Positions 4,237-63,924 of a stretch of DNA of 64,000 nt are shown here, piece after piece; the first letter of the stretch is position 1, and each line of letters starts with the position of its first letter. The stretch lies in the IMG/VR virus record IMGVR_UViG_3300022690_002678; one strand, given 5' to 3'. This DNA is from a virus. The notes beneath the pieces were generated by a model. The model worked only from the letters and a program-made list of their open reading frames with translations, ran no database searches and was not told where the DNA came from. The translations under genes were made by a program, and so were the position numbers.

Positions 4237-6163
4237 TACTAGAGAATCATTGTGTGGCAACTGCAAACATTTTGTTGCAGGCGGTCTCTGTGAACTAGTA
4301 AAGGGTCAGATAAAGGCAAAAGATACATGTGACTTGCATGCATATGGGCACCCACAACCAATTGATACAGAAGTCGATCCCAAATACAACAAGCTAGAAG
4401 TAAACTACAAGCCAGGATTTATGGTTGAGACTATACTAGAAACTACTACAGCTGATGTTGCACAAAAAGCATTACAAATGGAGCATGAGCTATTATCTCG
4501 CGGATTATCACAAACAGAAGTAGACCGAGCAGTAATTGCATATTTCTCAGAACGTGAACCGCCATATGCAGAGCCGTGGCCTGGGCCAGTTACAGGAGTT
4601 GACTTGGCAGGAACTATTAACAACAATATAGTTGTTGCAACAAGAGAGCCGTTAACAAATTTTGCAGGACTGCCAGATGACGTGCAGCCATATCCAACAC
4701 CAAATAAATCACCATACGGCATTGGAAGCTCATCATTACCATACCAGTCATTTCTTAGTCCAGATCCCAACTCCATTGGTTCTTTATCTAATGTTTATGA
4801 TGTATTAGCTACACCATACCCTGGAGACAATACTAACTGGAATGCAACTGCATCGCAGATAAACACTGAACCATCAATGCATGGCGAGCATGGATTTACA
4901 GTTGCAAAAGCAATTCCTGAATGGCGATACAACATTGAGGATTCGCAAGTGTATCCAACTAGTGTATCGCCTGATATTATACTTCCACCAAGCGGCACTA
5001 ATCGTTTAGCTGAAGCCAAAGAAAAAAAAGACACGCAAAAAAAATTGCGTAACCTTTTGCTAAAGTGGGGGTTAGTGTTAGGTGGACTGGTAGGAATCAA
5101 TAAAATTTTAGACAGTCAAGATCCAGACAAGCCACTAGAGCTATACGCAAAATACACTGCAACACTTGATGGCAAGACTTGTCCTGAATGCAGAGCTGCC
5201 AATGGTAAAGTTTTCAACTTTATTGAATTGCATAGACGACCAGTACTGCCAAGTGAGAATCTCGGATATACTACTCGTCACCCAAATTGCAGATGTAAGT
5301 GGGATGTACAGTATGATTATACAGGTAATATCGACTCACTAGATAGAAAAGAAGAATCAGAAATTCACAAGATTGAATCGCACATTAGCAATGCCGCAAA
5401 AGACGGAACACTACACAAAGTAAAAAAAGATGGAGCGCTAGAAAAAAAGACAACAAAGAAAAATCCCATAAAGGAATGTGGATGTACACATTTACCACAA
5501 TCAATTCAGTTAGAGTTACCAGTTGTAAAACTTGATACAAGATTATCTCTAACTATACAAAAAACATTACAAGAAAGCATTTCTAATCTTCGCTCAGAAT
5601 TTGATTGGCTAACTGAAGAGTATATAGAAAAGGCGCGAGAGCTTGCAGCAGATTCTGGAGGAGTGCTGTATTTGGTACGTGCAGCAGGTGAAACAATTAC
5701 AGATCACATGTCAGAAGGAGAAGCATACAGAAGAAAATTATCCGCAGATGAACTAAACTCTATGACCAGAACAGCAATTGGTAAATCTATGGACATCAAC
5801 CACCAACCAGAACTTGAAGTTGATGCAACCATACTTGATGCAGAATTTGACAAGTATAGAAAAGAGATTCAGATGTTAGTGGTAGTCCAAGATAATACAA
5901 TTAATGACGCAATTGATGATGGAAAAATTACAGCAGTATCAATTAATGGCGGCATGCCACGTTCAGAAAGTATAGAGCCATGTGATCATGATTGTACAGA
6001 TAATTGTGAGTTGTGTTTGGTTCCAAAAGGTGTAGTGTTAGGTGAACTTGATGGGATTGGTATGACCTTTGTAATTACTGATCCTAAAGGATTGTACTGG
6101 AACGGAAGATTTGTATCCAGCGCGGAACCTGGCATTAAATTCACGCGCCTCGAAAAATTATAA
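4214..6163 (+). CDS. Fusion: HiPIP-like 4-Cys domain + MuF/gp7 head morphogenesis domain + putative prohead protease
   Basis: CGNC-x8-C-x12-C at N-terminus; LDGKTCPECR...HPNCRC (MuF); C-terminal DINH...ILDAEF...ITAVSIN segment resembles capsid maturation proteases; precedes scaffold. Confidence 0.7.
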   Translation: MSKNQDTSTRESLCGNCKHFVAGGLCELVKGQIKAKDTCDLHAYGHPQPIDTEVDPKYNKLEVNYKPGFMVETILETTTADVAQKALQMEHELLSRGLSQTEVDRAVIAYFSEREPPYAEPWPGPVTGVDLAGTINNNIVVATREPLTNFAGLPDDVQPYPTPNKSPYGIGSSSLPYQSFLSPDPNSIGSLSNVYDVLATPYPGDNTNWNATASQINTEPSMHGEHGFTVAKAIPEWRYNIEDSQVYPTSVSPDIILPPSGTNRLAEAKEKKDTQKKLRNLLLKWGLVLGGLVGINKILDSQDPDKPLELYAKYTATLDGKTCPECRAANGKVFNFIELHRRPVLPSENLGYTTRHPNCRCKWDVQYDYTGNIDSLDRKEESEIHKIESHISNAAKDGTLHKVKKDGALEKKTTKKNPIKECGCTHLPQSIQLELPVVKLDTRLSLTIQKTLQESISNLRSEFDWLTEEYIEKARELAADSGGVLYLVRAAGETITDHMSEGEAYRRKLSADELNSMTRTAIGKSMDINHQPELEVDATILDAEFDKYRKEIQMLVVVQDNTINDAIDDGKITAVSINGGMPRSESIEPCDHDCTDNCELCLVPKGVVLGELDGIGMTFVITDPKGLYWNGRFVSSAEPGIKFTRLEKL

Positions 6164-11013: not shown

Positions 11014-11856
11014 GTGACTTCATCTATTTATCCAATTGATCTAACTCCAGCAAGTGAGAGTGTTAATTCTATAATTATTGATACTCCTGGTAATACTTTT
11101 ACAGGAGTTCAAACTGTTACAATAGCTGCACCATCTAGTGGCACTCAAGCTACTGGTACTGCTGTCATAGGAGTTGCTGGTGTAATTGAAACTATATCTG
11201 CAATAGGAGGTACTAATTCGGGTTATTCTGATGGTGAAGCAATTGCTATTACAGGTGGTAGCGGTAGTGATACTGCTCTTGCAACAGCAGTTATTTCTGG
11301 CGGTGTAATTCAGAGTCTTGCTTTTACTGATCGTGGAATTAACTATCTGAACACTGATACTGGACTTGTCATAACTGGTGCTGTTAGTGGTGCTGCTGGT
11401 GCAACATTTGATGTTACTGCGATTGCTGCTAATGGCGTAAGATCAATTATTATAGATATAGCAGGTTCTGGTTACACTGCCGCACCAACAGTGACAATTG
11501 TTGGAACCGTTGGAAGTGGAGCTACTGCTACTGCTGTTCTTGCAGTGGAACCTGATAGTAATATACTGGCATCTGATATTGCAATTATTTCTGATATGGT
11601 ATCTCCTGGCGGTGGTGGAATATTAAGACTATACTTTGCATTTGCATTTTCTGGAACGCCTGCTACCATAGGCGTTTTTAATAATGATATCTTTAAGGGC
11701 AACCTAAATGCTGATAATGATTCACAAGTAGTTGATAATGGATATTATAGATTTGATATTGATGTAGAAGCAGGAGACAATATCAATCTTCAATGCAGTA
11801 CTGATGCTGTTACAGTTAACTTTGTTCGTGCACACCTAGTTCAGTTCGGGGCATGA
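11014..11856 (+). CDS. Virion structural protein with Gly/Thr-rich GSGYT repeats
   Basis: GSGYTAAPTVTI motif shared with 625-1866 and 17180-18988; promoter motif at -31. Confidence 0.65.
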   Translation: MTSSIYPIDLTPASESVNSIIIDTPGNTFTGVQTVTIAAPSSGTQATGTAVIGVAGVIETISAIGGTNSGYSDGEAIAITGGSGSDTALATAVISGGVIQSLAFTDRGINYLNTDTGLVITGAVSGAAGATFDVTAIAANGVRSIIIDIAGSGYTAAPTVTIVGTVGSGATATAVLAVEPDSNILASDIAIISDMVSPGGGGILRLYFAFAFSGTPATIGVFNNDIFKGNLNADNDSQVVDNGYYRFDIDVEAGDNINLQCSTDAVTVNFVRAHLVQFGA

Positions 11857-11859
11857 CCC

Positions 11860-12954
11860 TTGATTTATTCACACAAGCCACAACGCTCTGGTCGAAGTAT
11901 TCATGCCAACACAAATAATCCTCCTCAAGATCCTCCTGCACCACCACTTAAGCTAGTACAGATGCAGAAACTAGAATCAACCATACAACAACAAAAAGTT
12001 CAGATTACAAAACTATTGGGCTATCAGAAATCCTACGAGTTGCTAAAGTCTGAGAACAGTATTCTGGAATTGCAATACAAGTCACAGCATACACAACTAG
12101 AGACACTCACTACAGAATATGACACACTTAAAGTGCATTCCATATCTGAAGAAGCAAAATACAACTCAACAATACAAGAACTAGAGGAAGTAAATGAGAA
12201 ATACCTAACAGAGAAACATAAAGTAGTTACACTTACAGCACAACTACACAAAATTACTAAAGAGTATGACAAAACTAATGAAAAGACAAAGACTGACAAG
12301 TTAGAATTTGAGGAAAAAATTAAAACACAGCAAGCAAAACTAAAAGAGAAACTATCCGCAGAAAAACAGCAAGCATCCATCATAGATACACAACAAGACA
12401 AACTAGAAGAGCAGCTAGAGAAAATAACACAAGAATATGACACACTCAAAGTACAATCCACATCTGATGAGGAAAAATACCAGTCAGCACTTGCAAAACT
12501 AGAGGGACAGCTAGAGAAACAAAGTGACGAGTATGACTTGTTTATGATACAATATACATCTAAAAAAGATATCATTGATGCAAAATATCACTCAACACTC
12601 AAGAAGCTTGATACACTAAATCACAAATATACAGAAGAGAAACAAAAAGCAAAGCAACAAGTCAATGCACTTACATCACAAATAGAAAAGATCACAAAAG
12701 AATATCACATATTCAAAGAAAAGAGCGAGACTATACAGTTAGAATTAAAGTCTGAGATTAAAGACAAGCAAACTCGACTAGATAGACAACAAATCAAAGT
12801 AAAGCAGCTAACCGAAGAGATAGCATCACTACAGGTTCCAGATGTATTAATTGAGGATAGTACGCCGCCAGTTCTAGATGCAGAACCATCTATTGAACCT
12901 AAGAAAAAACTTTCTTGGTTGCAACGATTCATTGGAATCTTTAGGAGAAAATAA
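11860..12954 (+). CDS. Long coiled-coil protein
   Basis: Heptad-rich Lys/Glu/Gln sequence with internal repeat (EYDTLKV...KY); basic amphipathic C-terminus. Confidence 0.7.
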   Translation: MIYSHKPQRSGRSIHANTNNPPQDPPAPPLKLVQMQKLESTIQQQKVQITKLLGYQKSYELLKSENSILELQYKSQHTQLETLTTEYDTLKVHSISEEAKYNSTIQELEEVNEKYLTEKHKVVTLTAQLHKITKEYDKTNEKTKTDKLEFEEKIKTQQAKLKEKLSAEKQQASIIDTQQDKLEEQLEKITQEYDTLKVQSTSDEEKYQSALAKLEGQLEKQSDEYDLFMIQYTSKKDIIDAKYHSTLKKLDTLNHKYTEEKQKAKQQVNALTSQIEKITKEYHIFKEKSETIQLELKSEIKDKQTRLDRQQIKVKQLTEEIASLQVPDVLIEDSTPPVLDAEPSIEPKKKLSWLQRFIGIFRRK

Positions 12955-48417: not shown

Positions 48418-48615
48418 TTGAAGAAACAACCAATAATATTAGATCTTACAGAAAAATTTTGGTCTAACATAAAATTAGTTGATTCACCAAAGAATGTAAA
48501 AGGTCAATGTTGGATATGGACTGGAAAATTAGATAAAAATGGATATGGTAAAGGTCTCACTTCAACTATAGATTCAGGGATAGATACAGTAAATACTATA
48601 TCCAGTCTTAATTAA
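48418..48615 (+). pseudogene. Truncated HNH homing endonuclease
   Basis: EKFWS...CWIWTG...NGYG then unrelated sequence; HNH core missing. Confidence 0.7.
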
Positions 48616-48635
48616 TAATTTAAGATCCATAAAGG

Positions 48636-48845
48636 ATAGTTCGTTGTTTAGGAAATAGATTTGGTACTGGCTGTTACAGAATAACTAGAAATCCTCAGAA
48701 CCGTACAAATTGGAGTAAATATCAATTATGTCATGACTGTGCAAAGATTCTGCATGCAGAGGATTATGTGGGAGTTAAAAATCATGGGACTAGGAGATAT
48801 GCAAATGATGGAATAGGTAGATCTGTAAGGTATGGTGAATACTGA
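48636..48845 (+). CDS. Small Cys/His-rich protein, probable ATA start (paralog of 340-558)
   Basis: (M)VRCLGNRFGTGCY...NWSKYQLCHDCAKILH...KNHGTR. Confidence 0.6.
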   Translation: MVRCLGNRFGTGCYRITRNPQNRTNWSKYQLCHDCAKILHAEDYVGVKNHGTRRYANDGIGRSVRYGEY

Positions 48846-48994
48846 AATATTCACTAAAATAGATTATTCAATTTTAAAACATAAAAGATTAAGAACCATT
48901 TTCAGGCTCTTAATCATAATTACCATCGGGTAACCATTTACCGATTAGATTACTAAATCCTTCTAAATAAAAGTATCTTAATGTACCAAAATAA

Positions 48995-49077
48995 TGCGTA
49001 GAGTGGGATTCGAACCCACGAAACCCTGAGGTAACTATTTGGTAAATGGTCACTTTTGACCACTCGGTAATCCACGC
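48995..49077 (-). tRNA. Type II tRNA with Leu-like body and ACC (Gly) anticodon
   Basis: Acceptor GCGTGGA/TCTACGC, A73; D loop GAGTGGTCAAA; loop TTACCAA (49041-49043); long variable arm; T arm GTGGG-TTCGAAT-CCCAC; mismatches in D and anticodon stems. Confidence 0.75.
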
Positions 49078-49142
49078 ATAATTTTGTGATATTTGTGAAA
49101 TATAAATTAAATATAAAAAAATGGTTTTAGTAACAAAAATTA

Positions 49143-49415
49143 TTACTTTTCGAATCCTTCACGGTGAATTTTATAATATACTATTTTGCTGACAGGAATC
49201 CAGATTGTTTCATCTCCTGCATTAACTATGATTTCACCATTATCTTCATCAAAATTTACATTATGCTTGTGCAGTTCGATTTTTTCTCCATTATCCAGAC
49301 AAATCATTAGCTCACCGTTATCATCCAGGTGTTTGGATATTTTTTTGATTTCTTTGTTGTTACTATTTTCGCTCATATCCATACTCATTAATGAATAGTT
49401 TAAGAGATAATTCAT
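49143..49415 (-). CDS. Small beta protein (possible Sm-like fold); start probably 49382
   Basis: GELMICLDNGEKIELHKHNV...WIPVSKIVYY. Confidence 0.6.
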   Translation of the reverse strand: MNYLLNYSLMSMDMSENSNNKEIKKISKHLDDNGELMICLDNGEKIELHKHNVNFDEDNGEIIVNAGDETIWIPVSKIVYYKIHREGFEK

Positions 49416-49520
49416 AAAGAATATCTCAAAGTAAATAGATGATCTATTTTAATTGAGATATGGCATATTGTGAATACTGTATCCAGTTTTAAAAGAAATG
49501 TTTATTTTTCTTAATTATTC

Positions 49521-51107
49521 TTGGAAAATACTCTATATTTTGGTGATAATCTTCCCATAATTCGTGAATTCATAAAAGATGAAACCATTGACTTGATCTA
49601 TCTTGATCCACCATTCAATTCAAAAGCAAACTATAATGTAATTTTCAAAGCACCTAAAGGTGAAGAATCTGCTGCACAAATTACTGCATTTGAGGATACA
49701 TGGCATTGGCATACAGGTGATACTGAATTTGAATTTAATCAGCTAGTCAAAGGAGGAGGTGTAATTGCAGAAGTTATGAAGGGATTGGAATTAGTTGTTG
49801 GTAAAAATGATTTGTTAGCTTATCTTACAATGATGGCAATTAGATTACGAGAATTATATCGTGTTCTAAAAGATACTGGTTCTTTGTATTTGCATTGTGA
49901 TCCAACAGCTAGTCATTATCTGAAAATTATACTTGATGCAATATTTGAGGCTAAAAATTTTAGAAATGAGATTATTTGGAAAAGAACATCTGCACATAAT
50001 GATTCTAAACGATTTGGAAGAATACATGATATTATTCTATTTTATTCAAAAACAGAAAATTATATTTGGAATAAAGTTTTACAACCATATTCTGATGATT
50101 ATGTAAAGAAAAATTATAAATTTTCAGATGAAAAAGGAAATTATGCTTCTGAAAATTTAACAGGAGCTGGTGTTACTCAAGGAAATTCTTCAAAACCTTG
50201 GAAAAATATAGATCCCTCTAAAGTAGGAAGGCATTGGGCAGTTCCGTTAAATAATTCATTACCTGACTGGTTTATTTATCCTAAAAATTGGAAAAATATG
50301 AATTCACTTGATAGATTAGATATACTTCATGAACAACAATTAATAATTTTTCCTAAAAAAAAGAATGGTAAACCACGATTTAAAAAATATTTGAATGAAA
50401 GTTCAGGAAATGGACTACAAGATTTAATTTTGGATATATCCCCACTTTCATCTCATGCTAAAGAACGGATGGGTTATCCTACACAAAAACCAGTAGCCTT
50501 ACTTGAAAGAATAATCAAAGCTTCATCAAGCGAAGGGGATATAGCTTTAGACCCATTTTGTGGTTGTGGAACAGCAATAATTGCAGCTCAAAAACTAAAA
50601 CGAAACTGGATTGGAATTGATGTAACTCATTTGGCAATCCATTTAATGGAAGAAAGAATGAAAAAGGAATTTGCAATAAAACCAAAAGTAATTGGTAATC
50701 CTGCTTCATTTAACGGAGCTGAGAATCTATTCAAAAGAAATCCATTAGATTTTGAACGATGGGCAGTAACTAGAATAGACGGCATACATCCAAACAAAAA
50801 ACAAACAGGAGATCGTGGTATTGATGGGAAAGGATATTTAGGCCCAAATGGAGAATACAAAACTCTAGTTTCAGTCAAAGGTGGCAAACAGCTAAATCCT
50901 GGAATGGTTCGTGATCTTGTAGGTACTGTTACAAGAGAAGAAGCAACATTTGGTGTTTTAATTACAATACATCAACCTACTTCTGGTATGCAAAAAGAAG
51001 CTGTAGTTGCAGGATTGGTTGATATTGGATTATCACATTATCCCAAAATTCAAATTTGGACTATAGCTGATTTTTTTAATGGTAAAAAGCCCAATTTGCC
51101 ATACTGA
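49521..51107 (+). CDS. N6/N4 DNA methyltransferase fused to Mrr-like PD-(D/E)xK domain
   Basis: DLIYLDPPF, LDPFCGCGT; C-terminal GDRGIDG...VSVKGG. Confidence 0.9.
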   Translation: MENTLYFGDNLPIIREFIKDETIDLIYLDPPFNSKANYNVIFKAPKGEESAAQITAFEDTWHWHTGDTEFEFNQLVKGGGVIAEVMKGLELVVGKNDLLAYLTMMAIRLRELYRVLKDTGSLYLHCDPTASHYLKIILDAIFEAKNFRNEIIWKRTSAHNDSKRFGRIHDIILFYSKTENYIWNKVLQPYSDDYVKKNYKFSDEKGNYASENLTGAGVTQGNSSKPWKNIDPSKVGRHWAVPLNNSLPDWFIYPKNWKNMNSLDRLDILHEQQLIIFPKKKNGKPRFKKYLNESSGNGLQDLILDISPLSSHAKERMGYPTQKPVALLERIIKASSSEGDIALDPFCGCGTAIIAAQKLKRNWIGIDVTHLAIHLMEERMKKEFAIKPKVIGNPASFNGAENLFKRNPLDFERWAVTRIDGIHPNKKQTGDRGIDGKGYLGPNGEYKTLVSVKGGKQLNPGMVRDLVGTVTREEATFGVLITIHQPTSGMQKEAVVAGLVDIGLSHYPKIQIWTIADFFNGKKPNLPY

Positions 51108-51273
51108 AAATAATCTTCAATAAATCTCAACAATATCTCAAAGCAAATAGATGATCTATTTCAATTAAGACACCTTCAATCTTTACCTATAGACTTTAGA
51201 CAATCAGGTTGTATTCATATTATCTTTCATTTCTCACAAAGATATAATTAAGATTGGCTTTAATAATTACTGA

Positions 51274-51627
51274 ATGCCGAGTTCAGACTCTCCGAGTCAT
51301 GAAGATATTCTTTCAGAATCCGTATACCGTTATGATGATTTTATAATACATTGTTCAAATATCCTGGAAGGATTAGTCACAATAGGTAAGGAAGTCGATC
51401 CTATGATGCTTAATAAATTATCTAAAGAAGATCAGCTTAAATTTAAAAACACATATTCAGAAGCTCTTGATATGTTGCAAAAAACTTTACATGCAACTAT
51501 CTTAAGAAAGAGCAAGAATGAACCAACACCTGAATGGTTTTTTCAAGGTCAGAGAAAAAAACTACAAAAAATAGATGAAGAGATTGTCCCAATATTACAT
51601 AAACTAAGATTCCAGCTTACAGATTAA
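51274..51627 (+). CDS. Hypothetical protein
   Basis: ORF track; only plus-strand gene between repeat copies 2 and 3. Confidence 0.6.
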   Translation: MPSSDSPSHEDILSESVYRYDDFIIHCSNILEGLVTIGKEVDPMMLNKLSKEDQLKFKNTYSEALDMLQKTLHATILRKSKNEPTPEWFFQGQRKKLQKIDEEIVPILHKLRFQLTD

Positions 51628-51724
51628 CTACTAATTTGATAATCTTAGTAACCCCATATCCCGACATTTCTTAAAAAAAAGAAAAGAGAACTATCGATAG
51701 TAACCTATCTGATAGTCAGTGTTG

Positions 51725-52069
51725 TTATCCTGTTTCGTTTCCTCGTTCTGTTTCTGCTTTCGGTGGTGTTCTTTCTGAGTCTGTTTCTGAGCATCCTGTT
51801 TCTGTTCCTTCGCATCCTGTTTCTGGGTCTGTATCTGTGCATCCTGGGTCATCTATTGGGTCAGGTGTTGGGTCTTGCGGAGGTGCAGGTATTGGGTCTG
51901 TTTCTATGCAATCTATTTCTGTGCATACTGGTACTCCATCTGCTCCGTGTCTAGCTGTTGTAGCTTCTTCTTCTGCTGCTTCTGCAAAATCTACCATAAC
52001 AAATGGCAATAGCATGGCAACAATCAGAGAAGTTAACAAGATTGTTTTTGTATGTTTACTACATTCCAT
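51725..52069 (-). CDS. Secreted low-complexity acidic protein
   Basis: KTILLTSLIVAMLLPF signal peptide; CTEIDC/CTDTD/CEGTE repeats. Confidence 0.5.
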   Translation of the reverse strand: MECSKHTKTILLTSLIVAMLLPFVMVDFAEAAEEEATTARHGADGVPVCTEIDCIETDPIPAPPQDPTPDPIDDPGCTDTDPETGCEGTETGCSETDSERTPPKAETERGNETG

Positions 52070-52321
52070 AATATAATCATAAGAACATATTATAAAGACA
52101 CTTAGGTAGAGTTATAACCCATACGCAAGCATCTTCAACAAATCTTTAATTACTGTAACATTTCATCCTATCAGATGCAACAAATCACAATGTCAAACAA
52201 AACCAGGCATCAAAGACCACTGCTTTTTTATTGCGATAAATGATTTATTTGAATTGAGCTGTATGGGGTATTGTAAATACTGAACCTAATCATAAATAAT
52301 AATTAAAATCTAATTAAATTA

Positions 52322-52915
52322 TTGTATAAAAAAGATTTAAAGATAGAAAATCCTAAAAAATTTCAAAGACATGTAAATGATGTGGCATCTGGTGTGTTGT
52401 ATAAGAGGGGTTATTATCTGAATAGAAACTATAGTAAATTTCCATATCTAAAGGCAAATGGAATCATAAACATTGCTGATTTTCATGGATTATTATGTTT
52501 TGTAAAGAATCACAGAAATTATAATCTAATATCACGAATTATTGGTGGTATTCTTATCGGTATTGGTGCGATATACTGGGTATCTCCTGCATTCACAAAT
52601 CTTTATTCAGCCTTGTGGAGTCCACATTCTTGGATAATTATTGGAGTTGGTTTGTTTTTGATTTTTTTCAAATTTGGAAAGGATATTTGTATTGAGATTA
52701 GACTAGTTGGAGAGAGCTATCGTACTGATATCAAAAAAGAAGAGAATTTTATTGAATATCTCAATGTTAGAAGTTATGCTCGTCTGACAGTGCAAGCAGC
52801 TACCCTTGATCCTAGAAAAACGCTAAGTGGTAAAGATATTGAAAAACTACGAGAAGATGGTAGTGCTTTAACAGCAGAATTGACCCCGTTTTTAGAGAAA
52901 TATCTTGAACATTGA
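52322..52915 (+). CDS. Membrane protein (2 TM)
   Basis: Two hydrophobic helices. Confidence 0.65.
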   Translation: MYKKDLKIENPKKFQRHVNDVASGVLYKRGYYLNRNYSKFPYLKANGIINIADFHGLLCFVKNHRNYNLISRIIGGILIGIGAIYWVSPAFTNLYSALWSPHSWIIIGVGLFLIFFKFGKDICIEIRLVGESYRTDIKKEENFIEYLNVRSYARLTVQAATLDPRKTLSGKDIEKLREDGSALTAELTPFLEKYLEH

Positions 52916-53501
52916 AATTCCTTTTAATTATGAAAATGTTTTACCTAGATTTTGGTATTTAATGTTAATTAAAACTAGTTTTCATTTTCCAAATAGAACT
53001 GATAGATTTTATCCATTTGGAAGTACCACTGAAAAACAATTTAATCATATTTTAGAAAAAATTAAAAATCCTCCAGATGATACTGCACAAAGATTACAAC
53101 GAGATAATTGTGCATATTGTGGAGAAAATCACACTTTTTCAGGAAAAGGTGATCATATTTTAAATAAAGAAATTTGGGAAAAACATATTGAATTAAACAG
53201 TTTACCTTTTAGAATAAATTGTTGCAGATCTTGTAATTCCTCAAAAGGTAAAAAGGATATGTTAGAATGGTGGATTATTCATAAAAAAAAATCTATTTTA
53301 GATTTATCAATGGATCATATTAGTATCTATGCTAGAGCTAAATGGCAATATCATAAAGCAGATGGTACGTTGAAAGAAAAAGTTCCTGAATTTTGGGATC
53401 AAGTTATAAGTCAAATACATGAGCATATTCGGCAAAAGAGCTACTTCATAATTTGGTCAAAGGATTACTCAGACAAATTTAGAGAAAAACAACAATTATG
53501 A
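52905..53501 (+). CDS. HNH endonuclease
   Basis: CAYCG...GDHIL...CCRSCNSSKGKK. Confidence 0.8.
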   Translation: MNIEIPFNYENVLPRFWYLMLIKTSFHFPNRTDRFYPFGSTTEKQFNHILEKIKNPPDDTAQRLQRDNCAYCGENHTFSGKGDHILNKEIWEKHIELNSLPFRINCCRSCNSSKGKKDMLEWWIIHKKKSILDLSMDHISIYARAKWQYHKADGTLKEKVPEFWDQVISQIHEHIRQKSYFIIWSKDYSDKFREKQQL

Positions 53502-54673
53502 AATGGTATGGAATTGTCGCTTTTCTTGTATTAATTGGAGGTCTTGCAGGAATTGTTGTATATGGGATGAATCCTGATAAAATTGGTGTGGATTTTGGCA
53601 CTCCAAGTTTTATTTCAAATCAAATAACATCTACTACATCAATATTTGGATATGATATAGATAGTCCTTGTGATCTAGCCATTTATCTAAAAACAGCTGA
53701 TACATCAACTGGAGCATATTTTGATGTAAGTGATAGACCTCTCGATAACCCAGATAATGTGAAAAAATTACAAAATTTGGTTTATTCAAAATATGAAAAA
53801 TGGGAAGTAGAAGCTGGATATTACAATAAGGAAGTAGCTGAAATAAAACGTGACTTTGTTTACAATCTTGAAACAGAATACGCCTTAAAAAAATATGACA
53901 TAAATCCAAAATTCTATAATATTGTAGATAAAGGAATTCACATTATGGCTTCAAGAACATTTGATCAAGACAAAGTAGAAATTTCAAGGTTTACACATAT
54001 GTTAAATGCAAATATGTTTGGTGAAGATAATTCATGTGAAAGAAAATATCTTGAGACATATGGAAATCAGACATATGAGGGATTAAAAACTATTCATAGT
54101 AATAACATGCAACAAGTGGATGCAGTTTGGAATGAAATACAATCACGCGTATACGACTGTAATGCAGAAGTAAAGGATTTGGTTTACACAAATTGTAGAT
54201 TGGGTATTAGTGTCGAAAGACCATCTACCCAGTGGAATTTCACTGTTTATGAGAGAGGCATAATAGATGATGAAGATCCACGTAATACTACATTATTTTC
54301 TTTGGATTTAATCATAGATTCTATTACAAAACCTGATTTTCCTGATGCTGAGTTTTACCTAGATATCTATGATTGGAAACAAACTGAAGAGATATCTATC
54401 TATGATATAACACAATTAACTATAGATCACTTAGAAAATGACCCATTCTCTACAAATATTGAATTAATATATGATGATGAAAAACCTGATCAATTTTCTA
54501 TGCGCTTTACTATTTTAGGTGATCAAAAATATGAGTGCTATAAAGAAGTTAATAGAAAAAATAACTTTGATTATTATCTAATTCAATGCATAAACACAAA
54601 TCCTGAAACCAATTCAATTGATAAATTAACAAAAGAGACTGATGCTATTTTTGAATCATTTAAATTTATTTGA
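53498..54673 (+). CDS. Membrane-anchored extracellular protein
   Basis: N-terminal TM; ATGA overlap. Confidence 0.65.
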   Translation: MKWYGIVAFLVLIGGLAGIVVYGMNPDKIGVDFGTPSFISNQITSTTSIFGYDIDSPCDLAIYLKTADTSTGAYFDVSDRPLDNPDNVKKLQNLVYSKYEKWEVEAGYYNKEVAEIKRDFVYNLETEYALKKYDINPKFYNIVDKGIHIMASRTFDQDKVEISRFTHMLNANMFGEDNSCERKYLETYGNQTYEGLKTIHSNNMQQVDAVWNEIQSRVYDCNAEVKDLVYTNCRLGISVERPSTQWNFTVYERGIIDDEDPRNTTLFSLDLIIDSITKPDFPDAEFYLDIYDWKQTEEISIYDITQLTIDHLENDPFSTNIELIYDDEKPDQFSMRFTILGDQKYECYKEVNRKNNFDYYLIQCINTNPETNSIDKLTKETDAIFESFKFI

Positions 54674-54861
54674 GGTTCAACAAATTATATCTCAATTACG
54701 ACAAATGATTTATTTGAATTGAGCTATATGGCGTTTTGTGAATACTGAAGACACAGAAAGACTCTCACTTTTTTGTTCTTTTATTGTCAAAAGAGTAGGT
54801 ATATGGCGTATTGTGAATGCTGTATCCCCCTTTAAATAAAAATAATTTATTTGTTTTTATA

Positions 54862-55086
54862 ATGAAGGATAATATTAAATCAGACTTAGACAAAGAATGT
54901 CAAAAACTGCTTGAAGGAATAACTAGTCAGAAAGATACTGTATTGAAAATTACACAATCTTTTGGTATATCTTATCCTCATTTGATTCCCTTTGTTATGG
55001 GGATTGTTTACGCACAACTTCAGACATATTTCAAAGATCTATATGTTCTTCATGGAATTGCTCAGGAACCTTATACTGCGTACTGA
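54862..55086 (+). CDS. Hypothetical protein
   Basis: ATG 54862, ~31 nt after TTTAAATA box. Confidence 0.5.
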   Translation: MKDNIKSDLDKECQKLLEGITSQKDTVLKITQSFGISYPHLIPFVMGIVYAQLQTYFKDLYVLHGIAQEPYTAY

Positions 55087-55176
55087 TTGGGAAACATTTT
55101 GGAAATCAGAATACAAGTCTTTAAGTGAAAAATTACAAAAAATCTATAGATTATGATAAATGATGAAATGGTATAA

Positions 55177-55863
55177 ATGATTGAAACCATAACAATAGAA
55201 AAAAGACCTCCTTCTTGTTTTATTAATAAAAAAACATTAGAAAATATATGTAACTTCTTCGATTTACAATATGGCATTTTAAAAAAAGAAAATGAGCATC
55301 TTAAAATTGATATTACTATTTTTACAAAAAATAATTACAAAAAATTTGATTCTACCAAGGAATTTCTTTTAGAAAGCATTCCTGTTAATTTAGGTTATAT
55401 TTCATTAAATTTGGGTAATTTAGTTGATAAAAAACTAATAAAAATTATTCTTACTCCTCATAATCCTAATTCTAAAATTTTGGTAGAGGGAGATGATGTA
55501 ATGTGGGTGCATGGTGTATTTGGTAAATTAGAGTATATTTTTAATATAAATTCAACAAAACATGATTTATTATATAAAATAATAGCTCCTATATGTTTTG
55601 GAATTGTATTCTTTTATTACTTATTTTACCTTCAAAGTATTGAAATTAAAAATATAGTTCACAATTTTTTAGAAATGGCAGGCTTAACTACTAAAACTTC
55701 TCTGTTAATTCTTATTCCTGCTTCATCGCGGTTTGTTAGTAGCTTGTTATTTCCTTTAGTTGAGTTTGAGGGAATAAGAAAGCATAAAAATATAAGAATA
55801 ATATTACTGTCAATAATTTTAACGATTATGGGAGTAGTTTTGGCAATTAAATTGTCTAATTAA
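55177..55863 (+). CDS. Membrane protein with N-terminal soluble domain
   Basis: C-terminal hydrophobic helices; very AT-rich. Confidence 0.65.
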   Translation: MIETITIEKRPPSCFINKKTLENICNFFDLQYGILKKENEHLKIDITIFTKNNYKKFDSTKEFLLESIPVNLGYISLNLGNLVDKKLIKIILTPHNPNSKILVEGDDVMWVHGVFGKLEYIFNINSTKHDLLYKIIAPICFGIVFFYYLFYLQSIEIKNIVHNFLEMAGLTTKTSLLILIPASSRFVSSLLFPLVEFEGIRKHKNIRIILLSIILTIMGVVLAIKLSN

Positions 55864-55965
55864 AACAAAAACCTTATCTTCAACAATTCTTAGCTCAAAC
55901 CAAATAAATGATCTATTGTGATTGAAATAATGCTTAATGAATAGTTAATTTATAATTTTCTAACT

Positions 55966-56190
55966 GTGTTAAATCTTTCTACCGATGTAATTGTATTGTT
56001 AACCATTATTGCTGCATTCTCACAATCAATAGTTTTAGCCATTATTATGATTGTTATTTATAAAAATTTTATAGTTTTAAAAAAACACAATGAAATGACT
56101 GCTGAACGCTTAGATTTGATAGTTCCTGATAACATGAAATTTATTAATAGATATTTCAAAGATGTTACAAAAGATACATCAAAAAAATAA
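55966..56190 (+). CDS. Small membrane protein
   Basis: Hydrophobic N-half; sole gene between repeat copies 5 and 6. Confidence 0.55.
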   Translation: MLNLSTDVIVLLTIIAAFSQSIVLAIIMIVIYKNFIVLKKHNEMTAERLDLIVPDNMKFINRYFKDVTKDTSKK

Positions 56191-56319
56191 GTATCTAATT
56201 CACATTACTCAAAGAAAATAGATGATCTATCTTAATTGATCTATATGGCGTATAATGAATACTGTAGTCAACATTTTAGTGTGCCTCTTTACCAATATGA
56301 ATTAGAATGAGAGATTTGG

Positions 56320-57042
56320 ATGAAATATGATCTAAACAATATAATGATATATGTAATGAGTTTTGTTGTTATTCAATTTAGTATATATCTTATTAATTCA
56401 TTGAATCAAACTGGCTTTAACCATTTTGATAGTTCTACTAATGATCTTTCTAATTGGTTTACTTTATCATTAGAACTAGGTATAGGAATACCAATAGCTT
56501 TTGTAATAGGTAAACATTTTTTTGATAAATCTGTATGGAAAGCATTTGAATTATTTAAAAGAGAACGAGATAATAAAAATTTAGCAAACGTCAAAAATGA
56601 AGGGTTCATGTATGGTTGTTTTAATAGAATAGATGATACTATACGTCGAAATAAGTTAAAAGAGTACTTTACAACTCAAAATATAACTTCGTTTTTGAGT
56701 CCTATATTAATAAATACTATCTTTTTTGATCGAGATAAAATTATTGAAGATTTTGATGATCATGCTAAACGATTGAGAAGTCTTTCACTTTTACAATCAC
56801 ATGACGCTGCTCAGTTTCTTGAAAAAATAATTAAAATATTAAAGAAAGCAAAACTCTTTGAAAGACAACCAAATAAATTATCTAGTTTTTTACAAATTGA
56901 AGTTTCAGATATAATTCGGTTGGCAAGTTATTTAGATTTATTAATCGATAAAATGAAATTACAAAAAATGGATGCTTTTGAAAAGCATAGAGTCGATTAT
57001 GAACACATACAAGATAGAAATTATTTTGATAATATTACCTAA
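56320..57042 (+). CDS. Membrane protein
   Basis: Two N-terminal TM helices. Confidence 0.65.
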   Translation: MKYDLNNIMIYVMSFVVIQFSIYLINSLNQTGFNHFDSSTNDLSNWFTLSLELGIGIPIAFVIGKHFFDKSVWKAFELFKRERDNKNLANVKNEGFMYGCFNRIDDTIRRNKLKEYFTTQNITSFLSPILINTIFFDRDKIIEDFDDHAKRLRSLSLLQSHDAAQFLEKIIKILKKAKLFERQPNKLSSFLQIEVSDIIRLASYLDLLIDKMKLQKMDAFEKHRVDYEHIQDRNYFDNIT

Positions 57043-57061
57043 ACAAATCCTCAATAAATCT

Positions 57062-57328
57062 TTAATTACTATAACATTGTAGTACTTTCATGCAGCAATC
57101 ACAACAATACCAGTCACCAAAGGATGCCGATTCACTCCATTTAATTCTACATAAATGCTCTGAAACGACCTTCTTTGTTGGAAAACTATCAGCTGTCAGA
57201 TCAGCGCAATTAATCCATAATAAATGCCATACAGTGGCGCTCTTTATTTTATTATTCTTAAATAATACAAGATTCCTTTGTGATGTGGTAACAAAATGGA
57301 GAGCACAGTAATTTGGCACTAGATACAC
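57062..57328 (-). CDS. Small Cys-rich protein (start uncertain)
   Basis: HLC...WYCCDCC...CYSN; degenerate copy of its 3' end at ~52140-52220. Confidence 0.4.
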   Translation of the reverse strand: MYLVPNYCALHFVTTSQRNLVLFKNNKIKSATVWHLLWINCADLTADSFPTKKVVSEHLCRIKWSESASFGDWYCCDCCMKVLQCYSN

Positions 57329-58524
57329 TAAATTTTCTCAGCTCTACTCTAACGGAACAAGAATACCTCACACAACGCGGTGCTCGAAGCCGAGATACTG
57401 CTGGATTGCTGATGGCAGCCCTTACAAATGTAAAACTTTTCTGTGAATATGAGGCAAAGACTGACTTTTACATTATCATGGCAGAACTCAAGAAACACTC
57501 TGATGAAAAAAGAGATGCCCAAAGTACGTTAGTATTTCTGCAAAAGTTTGTGGCATGGCTTCACTCTGAGCATCCCGAAATAATGATGAGAACCAACCAA
57601 AACAACGACAAGATGGTATTTCGAAAAAAGCGTGTGTCATCTATCCGTAACTATATCGGCGAGCTGCGAAAATATTTCAAACGTGTCGGAGGAATTCCTG
57701 TAACTGCTGAGGATGTCTCTGACTTTATCATGTATCCTGAGGATAGTGAGGAGGAAGAGGCAGAACCATTAACGCATGATGAGTTGCGAAGAATAATTGA
57801 CAACCAGAAGAGCTTTCGACGAAAGATGCTATACAAAATAACTAAAGATACGTGCTCTCGAATCCGTGCAATCTGTGCATTAAAGCGAGAAAATGTAAAC
57901 ATTGATGTGCGCCCAATAGAGATTACCTTTCCAAAACATATCATGAAAGGCAAAAAGAGAACCGTAGTAAAATATGTCACAGCAGAGAACGAAGCTGACT
58001 TTATCCGATTTCTCCAGGACTATCCTGATCCCCGTGAATTGCTCTTTGGCACACATCCTGATCCAAAAAAGGCATCAAATGTCGAGCAAAAGATATGGAA
58101 CAGATTTGTAAAGAGTTTAGGGTTTACTGAGGTATATCGCCACAACAACCGCCTAAAGAAGAACATCCACTCTATCAAGGCATTTGCAGAGACGGCAGCA
58201 GAAGATGCAGTTGATGCGTTTTATGCCAATGCGTATGGAGACCATGACAACTATCTCTCACAATATATCAGATGGACATATGAGAAAAAGATTAAAAAAT
58301 TCCGAGCAATGGAGGTAAAACTAAACCTGTACACCAAGATAGTCAAAGTAGTTGACAACAAGATAGCCCTTGAGAAAAACCTTGAACTTGAGCAAAAGAT
58401 TGCATCAGTTGATGAGATTCTAAAGGAACTCAAACACAAGGGAACTGAAGCAAGTCAAATCCCTGATGATAAGATGAAAAAAATGTTTGAGGATATACTG
58501 CGAGAAAATAAAATCATTCCATAA
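57313..58524 (+). CDS. Tyrosine recombinase/integrase
   Basis: N-terminal SIRNY core-binding region; catalytic R (CSRIRA), K (MKGK), HSIK, GDH, Y (SQY). Confidence 0.85.
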   Translation: MALDTLNFLSSTLTEQEYLTQRGARSRDTAGLLMAALTNVKLFCEYEAKTDFYIIMAELKKHSDEKRDAQSTLVFLQKFVAWLHSEHPEIMMRTNQNNDKMVFRKKRVSSIRNYIGELRKYFKRVGGIPVTAEDVSDFIMYPEDSEEEEAEPLTHDELRRIIDNQKSFRRKMLYKITKDTCSRIRAICALKRENVNIDVRPIEITFPKHIMKGKKRTVVKYVTAENEADFIRFLQDYPDPRELLFGTHPDPKKASNVEQKIWNRFVKSLGFTEVYRHNNRLKKNIHSIKAFAETAAEDAVDAFYANAYGDHDNYLSQYIRWTYEKKIKKFRAMEVKLNLYTKIVKVVDNKIALEKNLELEQKIASVDEILKELKHKGTEASQIPDDKMKKMFEDILRENKIIP

Positions 58525-58535
58525 ATCATCTATTC

Positions 58536-60878
58536 TTAATTAATCAAAGTCTGAATTTTACTATCACATATGGCAATCTCATCACTCAAAGATATGTGTG
58601 GCTGATCATCAAGCAAATACTCGCTAAAGAGTGGGGTGTTCTTGTCTGTTATGGTATATGGATAATTTTCTGCTAGCCATTGCTGTGCCGTATATTCATT
58701 TTCCAGCAAAGTGCATTGTGTAAATAACTCATCGAGATTGTAGGGTGAACTTCTCAGATCATCATAACTAACAATCACAACTATGTCATCAACTGGAATA
58801 CCATACAACTTTTCAATGGTTTGCTGAGCTAACTCCTGCTGTTGTAGGATGAGATTAGGAAATTCTGAATGCAGTCTATCATTGTATCCACTCCATTGTG
58901 AATATTCATCCGTAATCTTCTGTGGAACAGGTAACGTATCTACTAGGTGTGGGCCATATTGATTGTCGTGCTTCCACATGTTACCGTATTTGTCGTCCCA
59001 CATGTCAGTCTTGTAATCCACTAGAGTTAACAGCACAGTTCCAGATCTTTGTGGATAAAATGCTTCACTTGGTACAGCAACATTTTGTTTCAGTGGATCA
59101 TTTAATGACTCACCAACTACTAGCACGCCGTGATTGAGGAAATTTAGCTGCGAATTTCCAGCACTATCTCTTGCATTGATTGCAATAATGTTATACTTTG
59201 GTTGGTCTCTGTACACATACTCCAATGATACCTCCAGGCACTGAGTTTGACTATCGGGGCTGCAAAATACACGAGCAGTTGATACACTAATGACATCAAC
59301 GAGATTGTTTTTATCAATAACTACAATCTCCTCTACCAGAGCGTCATCAATGGATATCTCTGCTAGTGTTTGTGCATAATTTAATGGAGAACCAACCTCT
59401 GGCATTCCAAGTCCGAACTGTACCATCTTGATATTGTCGACTCCTTGATTTTCATATATTTTGACAGTAGCTGTGTTTGTCATATTGGTAGTTACAGTAA
59501 TTTCTGGAAAGTCTGTATGGTAATTTGTAACATTGACTGAATTGGCATTGTATGTAAAGCCCTCCCATACTATTAGACTGTTAAATGTGTTCTTGCCAAA
59601 GGTTGGCTTTGTACAGTCAGCACAGCCACCATTACCGCCAGAAGGGATACTATCTGTAATGTGGGCAGGCAGACTAATTATCTGGACACCATCACCACTA
59701 CGACTTGTAGTTATAGCATAAAGAAGATTATTAGAAGTAAAGGTTGCAACATCATAAGGACTATCCAACGCTGTAAACCCATTAACCTCGTCAATTGCTG
59801 TATTTCCTGCAATTATGTCAGTAGGATCACTTAGATTAATTATTTGGGCACCGTTTTCTTCAGCAGATGCAACTATCGCATAAGGAACATCATCAACAGT
59901 AAAGGTTGCAACATTAGAAGACCTATCTAACACTGTAAACCCATTAACCTCGTCAGTCTCTGCATCTGTTGCAATTATGTTTGTAGGGTCACTTAGATTA
60001 ATTATCTGGACACCGTCATCATCAATACTTGTAACTATTGCATAAACGATACTATTAACAGTAAAGGTGTTAACACCAGCAGCCCCATCCAACGCTGTAA
60101 ACCCATTAACCTCGTCAAACTCCGCATCTGTTGCAATTATGTCAGTAGGATCACTTAGATTAATTATCTGGACACCGTCATCATTCTCAGATACAACTAT
60201 CGCATAAGGAACATCATCAACAGTAAAGGTTGCAACATCATTAGCTGCATCCAACGCTGTAAACCCATTAACCTCGTCAAACTCCGCATCTGTTGCAATT
60301 ATGTCAGTAGGATCACTAAGATTAATTATCTGGACACCGTCATCATCATAACTTGTAACTATCGCATAAGGAACATCATCAACAGTAAAGGTTGCAACAT
60401 CATTAGCCCCATCCAACGCTGTAAACCCATTAGCCCCATGAGTCTCCGCATCTGTTGCAATTATGTTTGTAGGGTCACTAAGATTAATTATCTGGACACC
60501 GTCATCATTATAACTTGCAACTATCGCATAAGGAGTATTACTTACAGTAAAGATTGCAACATTAGTAGCCCCATTTAATTCTGAAAATCCATTAAACCCG
60601 TCAGTCTCTGCATCTGTTGCAATTATGTTTGTAGGGTCACTTAGATTAATTATCTGGACACCGTCATCATTATCAGATGCAACTATCGCATAAGGAACAT
60701 CATCAACAGTAAAGGTTGCAACACCATAAGCTCCATCCAACTCTGAAAATCCATTAAACCCGTCAGTCTCTGCATCTGTTGCAGTTAGAGCTATATCCGT
60801 GGCAAAAGCAACATCAAAACTTAAAGCTACTGAAAAAACTAGGATCAAAAAACTAAATCTAAGTAGGGTCTTATTCAT
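58536..60878 (-). CDS. Secreted LVIVD-like repeat beta-propeller protein
   Basis: Seven ~51-aa repeats (153-bp DNA repeats) VATFTVDDVPYAIV...GVQIINLSDP; C-terminal GGCADC..PT domain. Confidence 0.8.
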   Translation of the reverse strand: MNKTLLRFSFLILVFSVALSFDVAFATDIALTATDAETDGFNGFSELDGAYGVATFTVDDVPYAIVASDNDDGVQIINLSDPTNIIATDAETDGFNGFSELNGATNVAIFTVSNTPYAIVASYNDDGVQIINLSDPTNIIATDAETHGANGFTALDGANDVATFTVDDVPYAIVTSYDDDGVQIINLSDPTDIIATDAEFDEVNGFTALDAANDVATFTVDDVPYAIVVSENDDGVQIINLSDPTDIIATDAEFDEVNGFTALDGAAGVNTFTVNSIVYAIVTSIDDDGVQIINLSDPTNIIATDAETDEVNGFTVLDRSSNVATFTVDDVPYAIVASAEENGAQIINLSDPTDIIAGNTAIDEVNGFTALDSPYDVATFTSNNLLYAITTSRSGDGVQIISLPAHITDSIPSGGNGGCADCTKPTFGKNTFNSLIVWEGFTYNANSVNVTNYHTDFPEITVTTNMTNTATVKIYENQGVDNIKMVQFGLGMPEVGSPLNYAQTLAEISIDDALVEEIVVIDKNNLVDVISVSTARVFCSPDSQTQCLEVSLEYVYRDQPKYNIIAINARDSAGNSQLNFLNHGVLVVGESLNDPLKQNVAVPSEAFYPQRSGTVLLTLVDYKTDMWDDKYGNMWKHDNQYGPHLVDTLPVPQKITDEYSQWSGYNDRLHSEFPNLILQQQELAQQTIEKLYGIPVDDIVVIVSYDDLRSSPYNLDELFTQCTLLENEYTAQQWLAENYPYTITDKNTPLFSEYLLDDQPHISLSDEIAICDSKIQTLIN

Positions 60879-63357: not shown

Positions 63358-63924
63358 ATGTTGGAGGATAATGAAGAGTCACTTCCAGAGTCAAAAATCA
63401 AGATAATTCGCCTTACTGATGAATATCTGAAAATATTTGGTGAATTACTAACTAATGAGACAAGTCGCAACATCATAATGGCTCTAGTTGAAAAACAGAT
63501 GTATGTCAATCAGATAGCCGACAAACTTGACATGCGAGTTAGTTTGGTGATTCATCATTTGCAAAAACTAGAGAAATTAGGATTATTAGATATTGTAGAG
63601 AAACCAATCTCAAGGAGAACTAAAGATCACAGATTTTTCAAGATACGAACCGATGTTTTCTTGTTGTTTACAAATAAGGACGTACAGAGAATTTTCAAGG
63701 AAGGAGTAAAGTTTGCAAGTGTTGCCCTTGCAGGAGTTGCGACATGGTTTACAACTTTGTCAATGCAGCTAAAGATAAACGCACCTTTACCAACTTGGTT
63801 TTATGATAATTTACTTTTACCATCTGTTTTTACAGGTATTGTAGTTTCTGCAATGTCAATTCTTTTCTTTAAAAAAAGAAAGGGGAAGATGAGTAATCAA
63901 TCATCTACTGACCAATCATCATAG
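63358..63924 (+). CDS. ArsR-like winged-HTH regulator with C-terminal TM helices
   Basis: LLTNETSRNIIMAL...IADKL...VIHHLQKLEKLGLL. Confidence 0.8.
   Translation: MLEDNEESLPESKIKIIRLTDEYLKIFGELLTNETSRNIIMALVEKQMYVNQIADKLDMRVSLVIHHLQKLEKLGLLDIVEKPISRRTKDHRFFKIRTDVFLLFTNKDVQRIFKEGVKFASVALAGVATWFTTLSMQLKINAPLPTWFYDNLLLPSVFTGIVVSAMSILFFKKRKGKMSNQSSTDQSS

Follow-up and report, generated by a model that had tools for sequence, protein, structure and literature searches.

The 64,000-nucleotide stretch analysed here (the window) belongs to a head-tailed thaumarchaeal virus that carries an island of accessory genes between a tRNA-like gene and a tyrosine recombinase gene. The left border is formed by the tRNA-like gene with the anticodon ACC on the minus strand (48994..49078; ARAGORN; Rfam tRNA, 39.7 bits), which, by analogy with the tRNA-like attP of halovirus HF2 (PMC8707807), may serve as attP. 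The recombinase gene int at the other end (57313..58524, plus strand; Pfam PF00589, a weak match at 30.9 bits) is co-oriented with the gene array and lies at its downstream end. The GC content of the island (49.1-57.1 kb) is 25-30% versus 36-40% elsewhere, in line with the very AT-rich gene array that an earlier note on this DNA had described.

The first island gene encodes a small 90-aa ORFan on the minus strand (49143..49415; likely start ATG 49388 in the ORF list), divergent from the first repeat module, c1. On the plus strand follow a fusion of an N6/N4 DNA methyltransferase with an Mrr-type nuclease domain (MTase-Mrr, 49521..51107; Pfam PF01555, 3e-46, and PF04471, 1.5e-6; PADLOC MTase_II), a 117-aa ORFan that is mobile between viruses (51274..51627), a block encoding 197-aa membrane, 198-aa HNH and 391-aa membrane proteins (52322..54673), two ORFans or membrane proteins of 74 and 228 aa (54862..55863), a 74-aa membrane ORFan (55966..56190) and a 240-aa ORFan (56320..57042). 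The MTase-Mrr fusion, the HNH protein and the membrane and ORFan proteins named in the earlier note are all confirmed. Most island genes are ORFans, present on one to three contigs.

Between these genes lies the family of imperfect palindromes reported in the earlier note, which is real and non-random as judged by motif counts against shuffles or expectation and by nhmmer. The palindromic element, P, is 41 nt long with a core of 17 bp, and the pattern of its centre has 13 matches on both strands against 0.61 expected (at least 13 in 0 of 100 shuffles); the pattern of a 21-nt tail, T, has five matches against 0.02 expected and that of box A, a third repeated element absent from the earlier note, six against 1.12. 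An nhmmer profile built from the copies gives six strong matches of 30-61 bits, all on the plus strand at 49.4-56.3 kb, and within the window the family is restricted to the low-GC island. The 47 kb that hold the structural genes are free of copies in both the centre-pattern scan and the profile search, and no member of the P family turned up when IMG/VR, metagenome and GTDB contigs were scanned by pattern.

The six P copies start at 49421, 51133, 52222, 54687, 55890 and 56204, and the placement of four of them 14-27 bp past the stop codons at 51107, 54673, 55863 and 56190 is confirmed (13-26 nt as measured). The copies are 71-90% identical to one another, and the modules are co-oriented and ordered as dyad-symmetric P, T, TATA-like box and start codon. 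Copy 1 (49421..49461) lies between divergent genes and is the sole perfect dyad with 16/16 pairs. Copy 2, preceded by box A (51113..51173), has 13/16 pairs and no tail; copy 3 with its T (52222..52282) has lost the left arm of P and retains 8/16 pairs; copy 4 with its T (54687..54747) leads into a T-rich stretch with no gene behind it, an 'empty' unit. Copy 5 with box A and a degenerate tail (55876..55945) and copy 6 with its T (56204..56264) have 12/16 pairs each.

The hairpin described in the earlier note, with outer arms of 9 bp, a 3x3 internal mismatch, inner arms of 7 bp and a TGA loop, is exact in copy 1, where all 16 pairs are Watson-Crick, but copies 2, 4, 5 and 6 have 12-13/16, and in copy 3 with its missing left arm it is not borne out. 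Copies 2-6 contain 3-8 non-Watson-Crick pairs each, clear compensation is confined to one pair (18/24), and RNA folding is significant for copy 1 (-17 kcal/mol, z -2.8) but not for copies 2-6 (z -0.6 to +0.9). The centre ATGAT is invariant and the arms vary. Conservation of P is at the level of sequence and not of structure, which is the reverse of attC.

In integrons, the integrase IntI is a tyrosine recombinase with an IntI-specific extra domain, and the attC sites of 57-141 nt have RYYYAAC...GTTRRRY cores and extrahelical bases, with structure conserved and sequence variable. The cassettes are promoterless and share the common promoter Pc, and attI lies beside a divergent intI. The island resembles this arrangement in its mostly co-oriented, unrelated genes, each with an imperfect palindrome, beside a tyrosine recombinase, and in cargo that varies between relatives. 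In contrast, the window has no IntI and no R''/L''/L'/R' boxes, the arms of P are without the AAC/GTT cores, P with 41 nt is shorter than the at least 57 nt of attC, each unit has its own putative promoter at a gap of 37-41 nt, and the recombinase is co-oriented at the downstream end. An identity of P with integron attC was also rejected as no more than one of six copies pairs perfectly and a single pair is compensated. The integron analogy of the earlier note is not supported on these grounds, nor does the locus speak for a new integron-like machine.

The position of the modules relative to start codons points to a regulatory role. The gap between the end of T and the start codon is 37-41 nt in five of seven copies (three in the window with 41, 39 and 39 nt, and two with 37 and 38 nt in L058, a second metagenomic locus with the same modules), and a TATA-like box has its centre 27-31 nt ahead of the start codon. 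In the window these are T copy 1 (49459..49479; TATA-like box 49486-49493; TTG start at 49521; 41 nt), T copy 3 (39 nt ahead of the start at 52322) and a solo T, c4b (54802..54822; TATA-like box 54831-54838; ATG at 54862; 39 nt), all on the plus strand. Against such a role count the tailless copy 2, about 100 nt before the next start, the geneless copy 4, which does have a tail, and copy 6 with a gap of 55 nt. The GTATT-N3-AATAC tail motif of the earlier note is exact in one tail (52268-52280), and the remaining tails carry one mismatch. Box A is found at 51113, 52131, 55876 and 57047. At 57047..57078 (plus strand) it has an extension that is duplicated at 52131, and together they lie about 28 nt upstream of a 73-aa ORF (57090-57311) preceding int and read as a promoter-like element.

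The modules seem to constitute a separate regulon, because the other promoter motif of the virus, ATACCTTTAA, is confined to positions 594-47359 and was never found inside the island. Divergent genes flank two copies of P, copy 1 and that of L058 module 2, and the left flank is conserved there too: the 36 nt left of copy 1, including a TATA-like box, recur in L058 before an unrelated 213-aa gene. Between divergent genes, a 3' recombination site makes no sense, and a terminator makes none either. Judged from position, the modules would possess promoter and operator activity, whereby P and T would be operators for dimeric DNA-binding regulators situated just upstream of archaeal promoters, or, in the two copies, between divergent ones. 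The island genes would then be driven by a repeated composite module consisting of P, T as a second short dyad, a BRE/TATA-like box and a leaderless start codon. Against this explanation counts that no candidate regulator for the putative operators was identified.

The comparison with L058, where the modules are 83-92% identical at the nucleotide level and flanked by other genes, suggests a second role. Module c1 is 83.5%, module c3 90% and the 117-aa gene 91.7% identical, whereas unrelated genes of 68, 124 and 213 aa occupy the places of the MTase-Mrr, 197-aa and 90-aa genes; the modules are the sole conserved DNA between otherwise unrelated neighbour genes. Relative to L058, the window has a 570-bp insertion (51659..52228) that splits a P copy and carries a minus-strand gene for a 114-aa secreted protein (51725-52069) and, at 52131-52162, the duplicate of the extended box A along with an ORF remnant of 22 codons. 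Homology breaks off at module edges or within modules at differing positions: directly past T, directly past the TATA-like box or within the left P arm. Moreover, the modules are mosaics; in L058 module 2 the left half of P is c5-like, T is c4b-like and the promoter c3-like. As homology ends at module edges and the flanking genes differ, genes appear to have been exchanged at the modules, which supports the notion of the earlier note that the repeats delimit exchangeable gene units; gene content, with unrelated genes on either side of the L058 modules, is not invariant among relatives. The family has a single independent comparator locus, L058, which spans 2.6 kb and has at its end a perfect inverted repeat of 122 nt, possibly an artefact of assembly.

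Cumulatively, the reading that we favour with modest confidence is that of regulatory cassettes similar to the promoter early stem-loop elements, PeSLs, of T4-type phages, in an archaeal virus, with the modules acting in addition as seams of gene swapping. The region of 49.1-57.1 kb would be a hyperplastic accessory-gene island in which the modules, being 70-90% alike and co-oriented, may act as homology patches for insertion, loss and replacement of genes between related viruses. The scattered breakpoints are more readily explained by homologous exchange than by a fixed crossover, and we consider exchange at the modules to be homologous rather than site-specific.

A site-specific alternative assigns P to the adjoining recombinase as its recombination site, from which circles would be excised and re-inserted following an integron-like logic with unrelated parts. 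Direct repeats, as all P copies of the window are, bracket each gene or block beside a recombinase whose catalytic residues R183, K212, H286, H311 and Y318 are invariant across 18 homologues, and an invariant ATGAT centre with variable arms is what an overlap region would look like; the adjacency of the recombinase, the direct orientation and a centre equally suited as a crossover core all count against the regulatory cassettes. The partial pieces (the half P at 52222, the solo T at 54802 and the empty unit past copy 4), the differing cargo of L058 and the resemblance of its module 2 to a hybrid of left and right P halves likewise fit site-specific recombination. However, tyrosine recombinase cores typically have their arms 6-8 nt apart, and the inner arms of P are 3 nt and the outer arms 23 nt apart. 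The recombinase is non-IntI, as the earlier note had stated, with no match to any integron-integrase model, archaeal XerA as its sole NCBIfam match (25.7 bits versus a cutoff of 220) and a Xer-like protein as nearest PDB sequence (E 0.0036). By sequence, the gene is conserved among viruses, as is the promoter region of its own, which aligns among relatives. The P/T repeat family is absent beside its 51-72% identical homologues in six loci (L004-L007, L053 and L054), which does not support the suggestion that the recombinase runs the sites. With breakpoints that are not fixed in P, pairing of P that is not maintained, a putative promoter in each unit, two copies between divergent genes and a 117-aa gene that occurs in a further locus, L059, without P or T, this alternative is improbable. 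Equally little credence is given to the broader proposal that P is the core site of an undescribed cassette system of archaeal viruses, at the centre of which the non-IntI recombinase or another viral enzyme acts; if true, this system would be an independently arisen functional analogue of integrons with promoter-bearing units.

PeSLs, which join a promoter to a stem-loop, flank ORFans in hyperplastic regions of T4-type phages, with indels located at the PeSLs (Arbiol et al., 2010, PMC2839356; Comeau et al., 2014, PMC4122927). Common to both systems are composite repeats of short length in intergenic DNA, in which a promoter is coupled to a dyad or stem-loop (here on sequence evidence), the clustering in an ORFan-rich hyperplastic region (all strong copies of the window lie at 49.4-56.3 kb), an extent that reaches from one gene's stop codon to the start of the following gene, and end-points of insertions, deletions or replacements within the repeats (here from one comparator, L058). 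On the other hand, PeSLs work in another host domain and with another transcription machinery; they possess sigma-70 -35/-10 promoters, Shine-Dalgarno sequences and G+C-rich terminators, whereas the modules have BRE/TATA-type promoter sequences, leaderless starts and AT-rich, mostly imperfect dyads that look like operators, and the island adjoins an integrase. Promoter and terminator activity as well as mini-circles have been demonstrated for PeSLs, while the modules are known as sequences.

Another analogue is halovirus HF2, an archaeal head-tailed virus in which AT-rich intergenic repeats (Class I/II of the HF2/HF1 group) carry promoters and a flexible methyltransferase region lies near int and the tRNA-like attP (Russ et al., 2021, PMC8707807; PMC7230728). 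In contrast to the modules, the HF2 repeats have been tested experimentally, are conserved with their positions across the genus and have not been reported as junctions of gene swaps; the two sets of repeats share no sequence similarity. The HF2 repeats, promoters at positions conserved within the genus, lend some weight to the view that the repeats of the window are purely regulatory, with P perhaps attenuating read-through, and that the differences to L058 arose by ordinary illegitimate recombination in a region tolerant to change, the repeats having no special part in it. This view shares the arguments from geometry and regulon with the regulatory cassettes, and the 117-aa gene, 92% identical in L058 and 84% in L059 at the nucleotide level with a different context in each, reached L059 without modules. 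We nevertheless regard it as rather unlikely, as several independent junctions in L058 end homology at or inside modules, which are mosaic and alone conserved between unrelated neighbours.

Being short, imperfectly palindromic, extragenic, often placed just past stop codons and multicopy in a small region, P also recalls REP/BIME elements, intergenic palindromes of about 40 nt or less. P could thus be a selfish REP/BIME- or MITE-like palindrome that transposed itself, its adjacency to promoters being coincidental. REP/BIME elements are bacterial, though, and P is viral and archaeal, limited to one 7-kb island, in a single orientation with the genes and fused to T and promoter in fixed register. 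No target-site duplications are found at the ends of P in the window, and no RAYT, HUH or other transposase among the scanned island and flanking proteins. Together with the absence of P from the structural genes and from the scanned contigs, this makes a selfish origin highly improbable.

Few microbes are as abundant as ammonia-oxidising archaea, whose viruses have come to light almost exclusively through metagenomes; to our knowledge, regulation and exchange of accessory genes in these viruses are essentially unstudied. From the modules, a candidate promoter/operator grammar can be read for a second viral regulon, apart from the structural-gene promoter. They also provide comparative evidence that repeated regulatory modules are seams for accessory-gene swaps, so that the PeSL principle known from T4-type phages would hold in an archaeal virus as well. 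As clearly delimited pieces they lend themselves to reporter and binding assays.

Two relatives, L054 and L049, carry a different promoter-linked module, made up of an inverted repeat with the palindrome TTCAATAATTATTGAA and a TATA-like box, which counts for the regulatory cassettes and against the integron analogy. Its copies occur in either orientation and to the left as well as the right of int, and at the measured sites (2130 and 5237 in L054) TTCAATAATTATTGAA is centred 44-45 nt ahead of the start.

The repeats that the earlier note had reported between 49421 and 56204 are real and occur far above chance, while their description requires correction, as the repeated unit is larger than the dyad-symmetric palindrome first delimited and the proposed hairpin is exact in copy 1 but not perfect in the other copies. 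The larger unit comprises box A (ATCTTCAAYAAATCT, in four places), the 41-nt dyad P (six copies, one of which is without its left arm), the 21-nt tail T (five good copies, including a solo copy at 54802, and one degenerate copy) and, in most copies, a TATA-like box ahead of the next gene's start codon. Each copy is on the plus strand, as are nearly all genes of the island, the low-GC accessory-gene stretch in which they are found. Of 16 possible Watson–Crick pairs in P, 12–13 are formed in copies 2, 4, 5 and 6 and 8 in copy 3. One position, 18/24 (GC to AT), is a clear compensated change, possibly joined by pair 1/41 of copy 5; the other changes break pairing. The centre of P is its most conserved part with an invariant ATGAT and constitutes, as double-stranded DNA, a palindrome of 17 bp with G as its middle base.

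The RNA fold of copy 1 reaches −17 kcal/mol (z −2.8), and the five other copies fold no better than shuffled sequence, on which ground a general role of P as a hairpin terminator is rejected. Moreover, an oligo-T tract follows none of the copies, and divergent genes flank both copy 1 and module 2 of L058, a contig of 2.6 kb that carries the same modules and stems from another sample, JGI 3300022707, which also yielded L053. As there is no co-directional upstream gene at these two places, a terminator role is implausible there, and a cassette site at the 3′ end of a gene makes little sense for the same divergent arrangement.

The spacing of the modules would fit a promoter. The last base of T is located 41, 39 and 39 nt before the start codon in copy 1, copy 3 and the solo T, respectively, and 37 and 38 nt in the two L058 modules, with the TATA-like box centred 27–31 nt before the start, as is usual for leaderless genes of archaea. 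T would consequently sit at the position of a factor bound directly upstream of BRE/TATA, with P abutting T, and P between divergent genes would be an operator common to two promoters. At these divergent positions, the conservation extends 36 nt leftwards from P, over a stretch with a TATA-like box that would serve the minus-strand gene. Box A with a 17-nt extension, found at 52131 and 57047 with 29 of 32 positions identical, likewise reads as promoter-like, the latter copy being located approximately 28 nt before a small ORF that lies upstream of the tyrosine recombinase gene.

The closest described system is the PeSLs of T4-type phages, cassettes of a promoter and a stem-loop flanking ORFans in hyperplastic regions, at which indels between closely related genomes end and which form mini-circles (PMC2839356, PMC4122927). 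In the halovirus HF2 group, the intergenic repeats of HF2 carry experimentally shown promoters, and a methyltransferase region near the integrase gene and a tRNA-like attP has been noted as flexible (PMC8707807, PMC7230728). We lean, with some reserve, towards the modules being regulatory cassettes of the PeSL kind, constructed around archaeal promoters.

Comparable dyads exist in relatives. In L054, a locus from an 85-kb contig, accessory genes, one of them of AbiV type, are preceded by copies of an element of approximately 90 nt, in which an 8-bp inverted repeat (ACATAACT...AGTTATGT) is combined with TTCAATAATTATTGAA, a perfect palindrome, and a TATA-like box. Its copies (700–880, 3440–3640, 5135–5290, 11260–11465 and 12185–12345) are found on either strand and on either side of the integrase gene, oriented like the genes, and the centre of TTCAATAATTATTGAA is located 44–45 nt before the start at the two measured copies (2130, 5237). 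The same palindrome is present three times (414, 1767, 3164) in intergenic position upstream of an integrase homologue in L049, from another sample, and is at chance level in the window. These loci show that lineage-specific dyads just upstream of predicted promoters recur in accessory genes near the integrase gene in these viruses, and thus support the reading of T and P as operators.

Whether genes are exchanged at the modules can be assessed at three loci to which cluster look-ups led. L057, which belongs to another assembly and is, like L056, a Logan contig of SRR7467839, matches 53296–59792 at 100% identity and hence shows no variation. L058 shares with the window the 117-aa gene (91.7% nucleotide identity), a c3-type module (90%) and a c1-type module (83.5%), while the genes beside the modules lack homologues both in the window and in the other fetched loci: a 124-aa gene replaces the 197-aa gene, a 68-aa gene the MTase-Mrr gene and a 213-aa gene the 90-aa gene. 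Relative to L058, a 570-bp insertion in the window (51659–52228) interrupts the left arm of a P copy; ahead of the 117-aa gene, the P centre has been lost from L058, where box A and the P left arm are retained. Module 2 of L058 is a mosaic with the left half of P like copy 5, T like the solo copy and the promoter like that of copy 3. The claim that the repeats delimit exchangeable genes is thereby supported by one comparator. In the related virus L059, the 117-aa gene is 84% identical on the nucleotide level, and its surroundings differ again and contain neither P nor T. As the TIGR-Tas core genes of L059 have only approximately 70% nucleotide identity to those of the window, recent transfer of this ORFan (window 51274–51627, L058 663–1016, L059 5982–6346) among related viruses into three different contexts is suggested. 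Cumulatively, the L058 and L059 comparisons indicate that genes move between viruses and that the modules, where present, form the seams. Homologues of the 391-aa cargo protein have 74–80% nucleotide identity over the N-terminal part (L049–L052), and the repeats were not found to travel with them in these four loci.

The earlier note had tentatively attributed such exchange to an integron-like mechanism driven by the neighbouring recombinase, a proposal that is not supported and that we consider unlikely. The breaks between the window and L058 follow T or the TATA-like box or fall within the P left arm, and none is at the P centre; in this small sample such scatter is predicted by homologous or illegitimate exchange between similar modules and not by a fixed crossover. 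The recombinase (57313–58524) has R183, K212, H286, H311 and Y318 invariant among 18 homologues and, judged by its protein family match, is not IntI, since archaeal XerA is its sole NCBIfam match, with 25.7 bits against a cutoff of 220. Its relatives number 45 in a word-based search and 297 as cluster representatives. Neither P, T nor a comparable array was found in the seven fetched homologue contexts (L004/L005, 60% identity; L006/L007, 68%; L053, 72%; L054/L055, 51%), so that the recombinase family occurs in these seven without the repeat family; the region upstream of the recombinase gene (TATA-like box, ATGGTAACA, TTG start) is kept in L004 and L006. Integrons have been described in Archaea, reportedly with canonical IntI and attC; at the present locus, every defining feature of an integron that can be tested on sequence is absent.

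Exact-pattern scans for P, T and P+T in IMG/VR, metagenome contigs and GTDB genome contigs gave only single matches of at most 20 bits, which do not cover the whole element, and therefore no large family could be assembled. The GenBank phage collection contained no integrase relative and matched the island only by methyltransferase fragments.

With respect to the setting, the window is, on its gene content, part of a head-tailed archaeal virus genome, with virion proteins on the plus strand at 1–47 kb, including a Mu-F-like head morphogenesis domain and tail-fibre or baseplate-like proteins. The promoter motif ATACCTTTAA has 22 sites in the window versus 9.4 expected; its exact copies span 594 to 47359, and none was found at 49–58 kb. 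The GC content is 25–30% at 49.1–57.1 kb versus 36–40% in the rest of the window, the right border being the recombinase gene, with a GC content as in the rest of the virus, and the left border a tRNA-like gene (48994–49078, minus strand), the sole match of an Rfam scan of the region. This odd gene is located 8 kb from the integrase gene at the island edge and could, by analogy with halovirus HF2, where a tRNA-like gene near the integrase gene has been proposed as attP (PMC8707807), be a candidate attP. The idea of an integrated element with att repeats derived from the tRNA at its ends is rejected, as box A with its extension is the sole repeat of the tRNA or pre-integrase region found in the window. 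Box A, its extension and the first codons of the 73-aa ORF upstream of the integrase gene (57047–57140) are duplicated at 52131–52228, inside the 570-bp insertion, which points to a past rearrangement that would have copied integrase-proximal DNA into the island.

Left of the tRNA-like gene, two short neighbouring ORFs (48418–48615 and 48633–48845) are each without Pfam support, and a split HNH gene at 48418–48845 was discarded accordingly; the first contains a CWIWTG...GYG motif as known from HNH homing endonucleases. Between them, 48589–48623 resembles the final part of T together with the TATA-like segment at 71–77%, and a second T-like piece and a P-centre-like piece are present at 48829–48875, with similar pieces 3′ of two genes in L050. 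In L058, a 122-nt inverted repeat (314–435 and 2436–2557), 100% identical and reaching the contig end, holds a half-site like the P centre and may stem from a fold-back in assembly or reflect a true invertible arrangement. A protein with an ArsR-type HTH and C-terminal membrane segments (window 63358–63924, L006 12648–13232) is kept near the integrase in relatives and is, with no link to P or T, a possible regulator candidate. L056, which overlaps the last 756 bases of the window and covers DNA of the same virus outside the island, has weak intergenic P-centre-like sequences (12–13 bits) at 1565–1595 and 3166–3200, approximately 1.6 and 3.2 kb into the locus, and at 2800–3120 a tRNA-like sequence with two repeats of approximately 120 nt.
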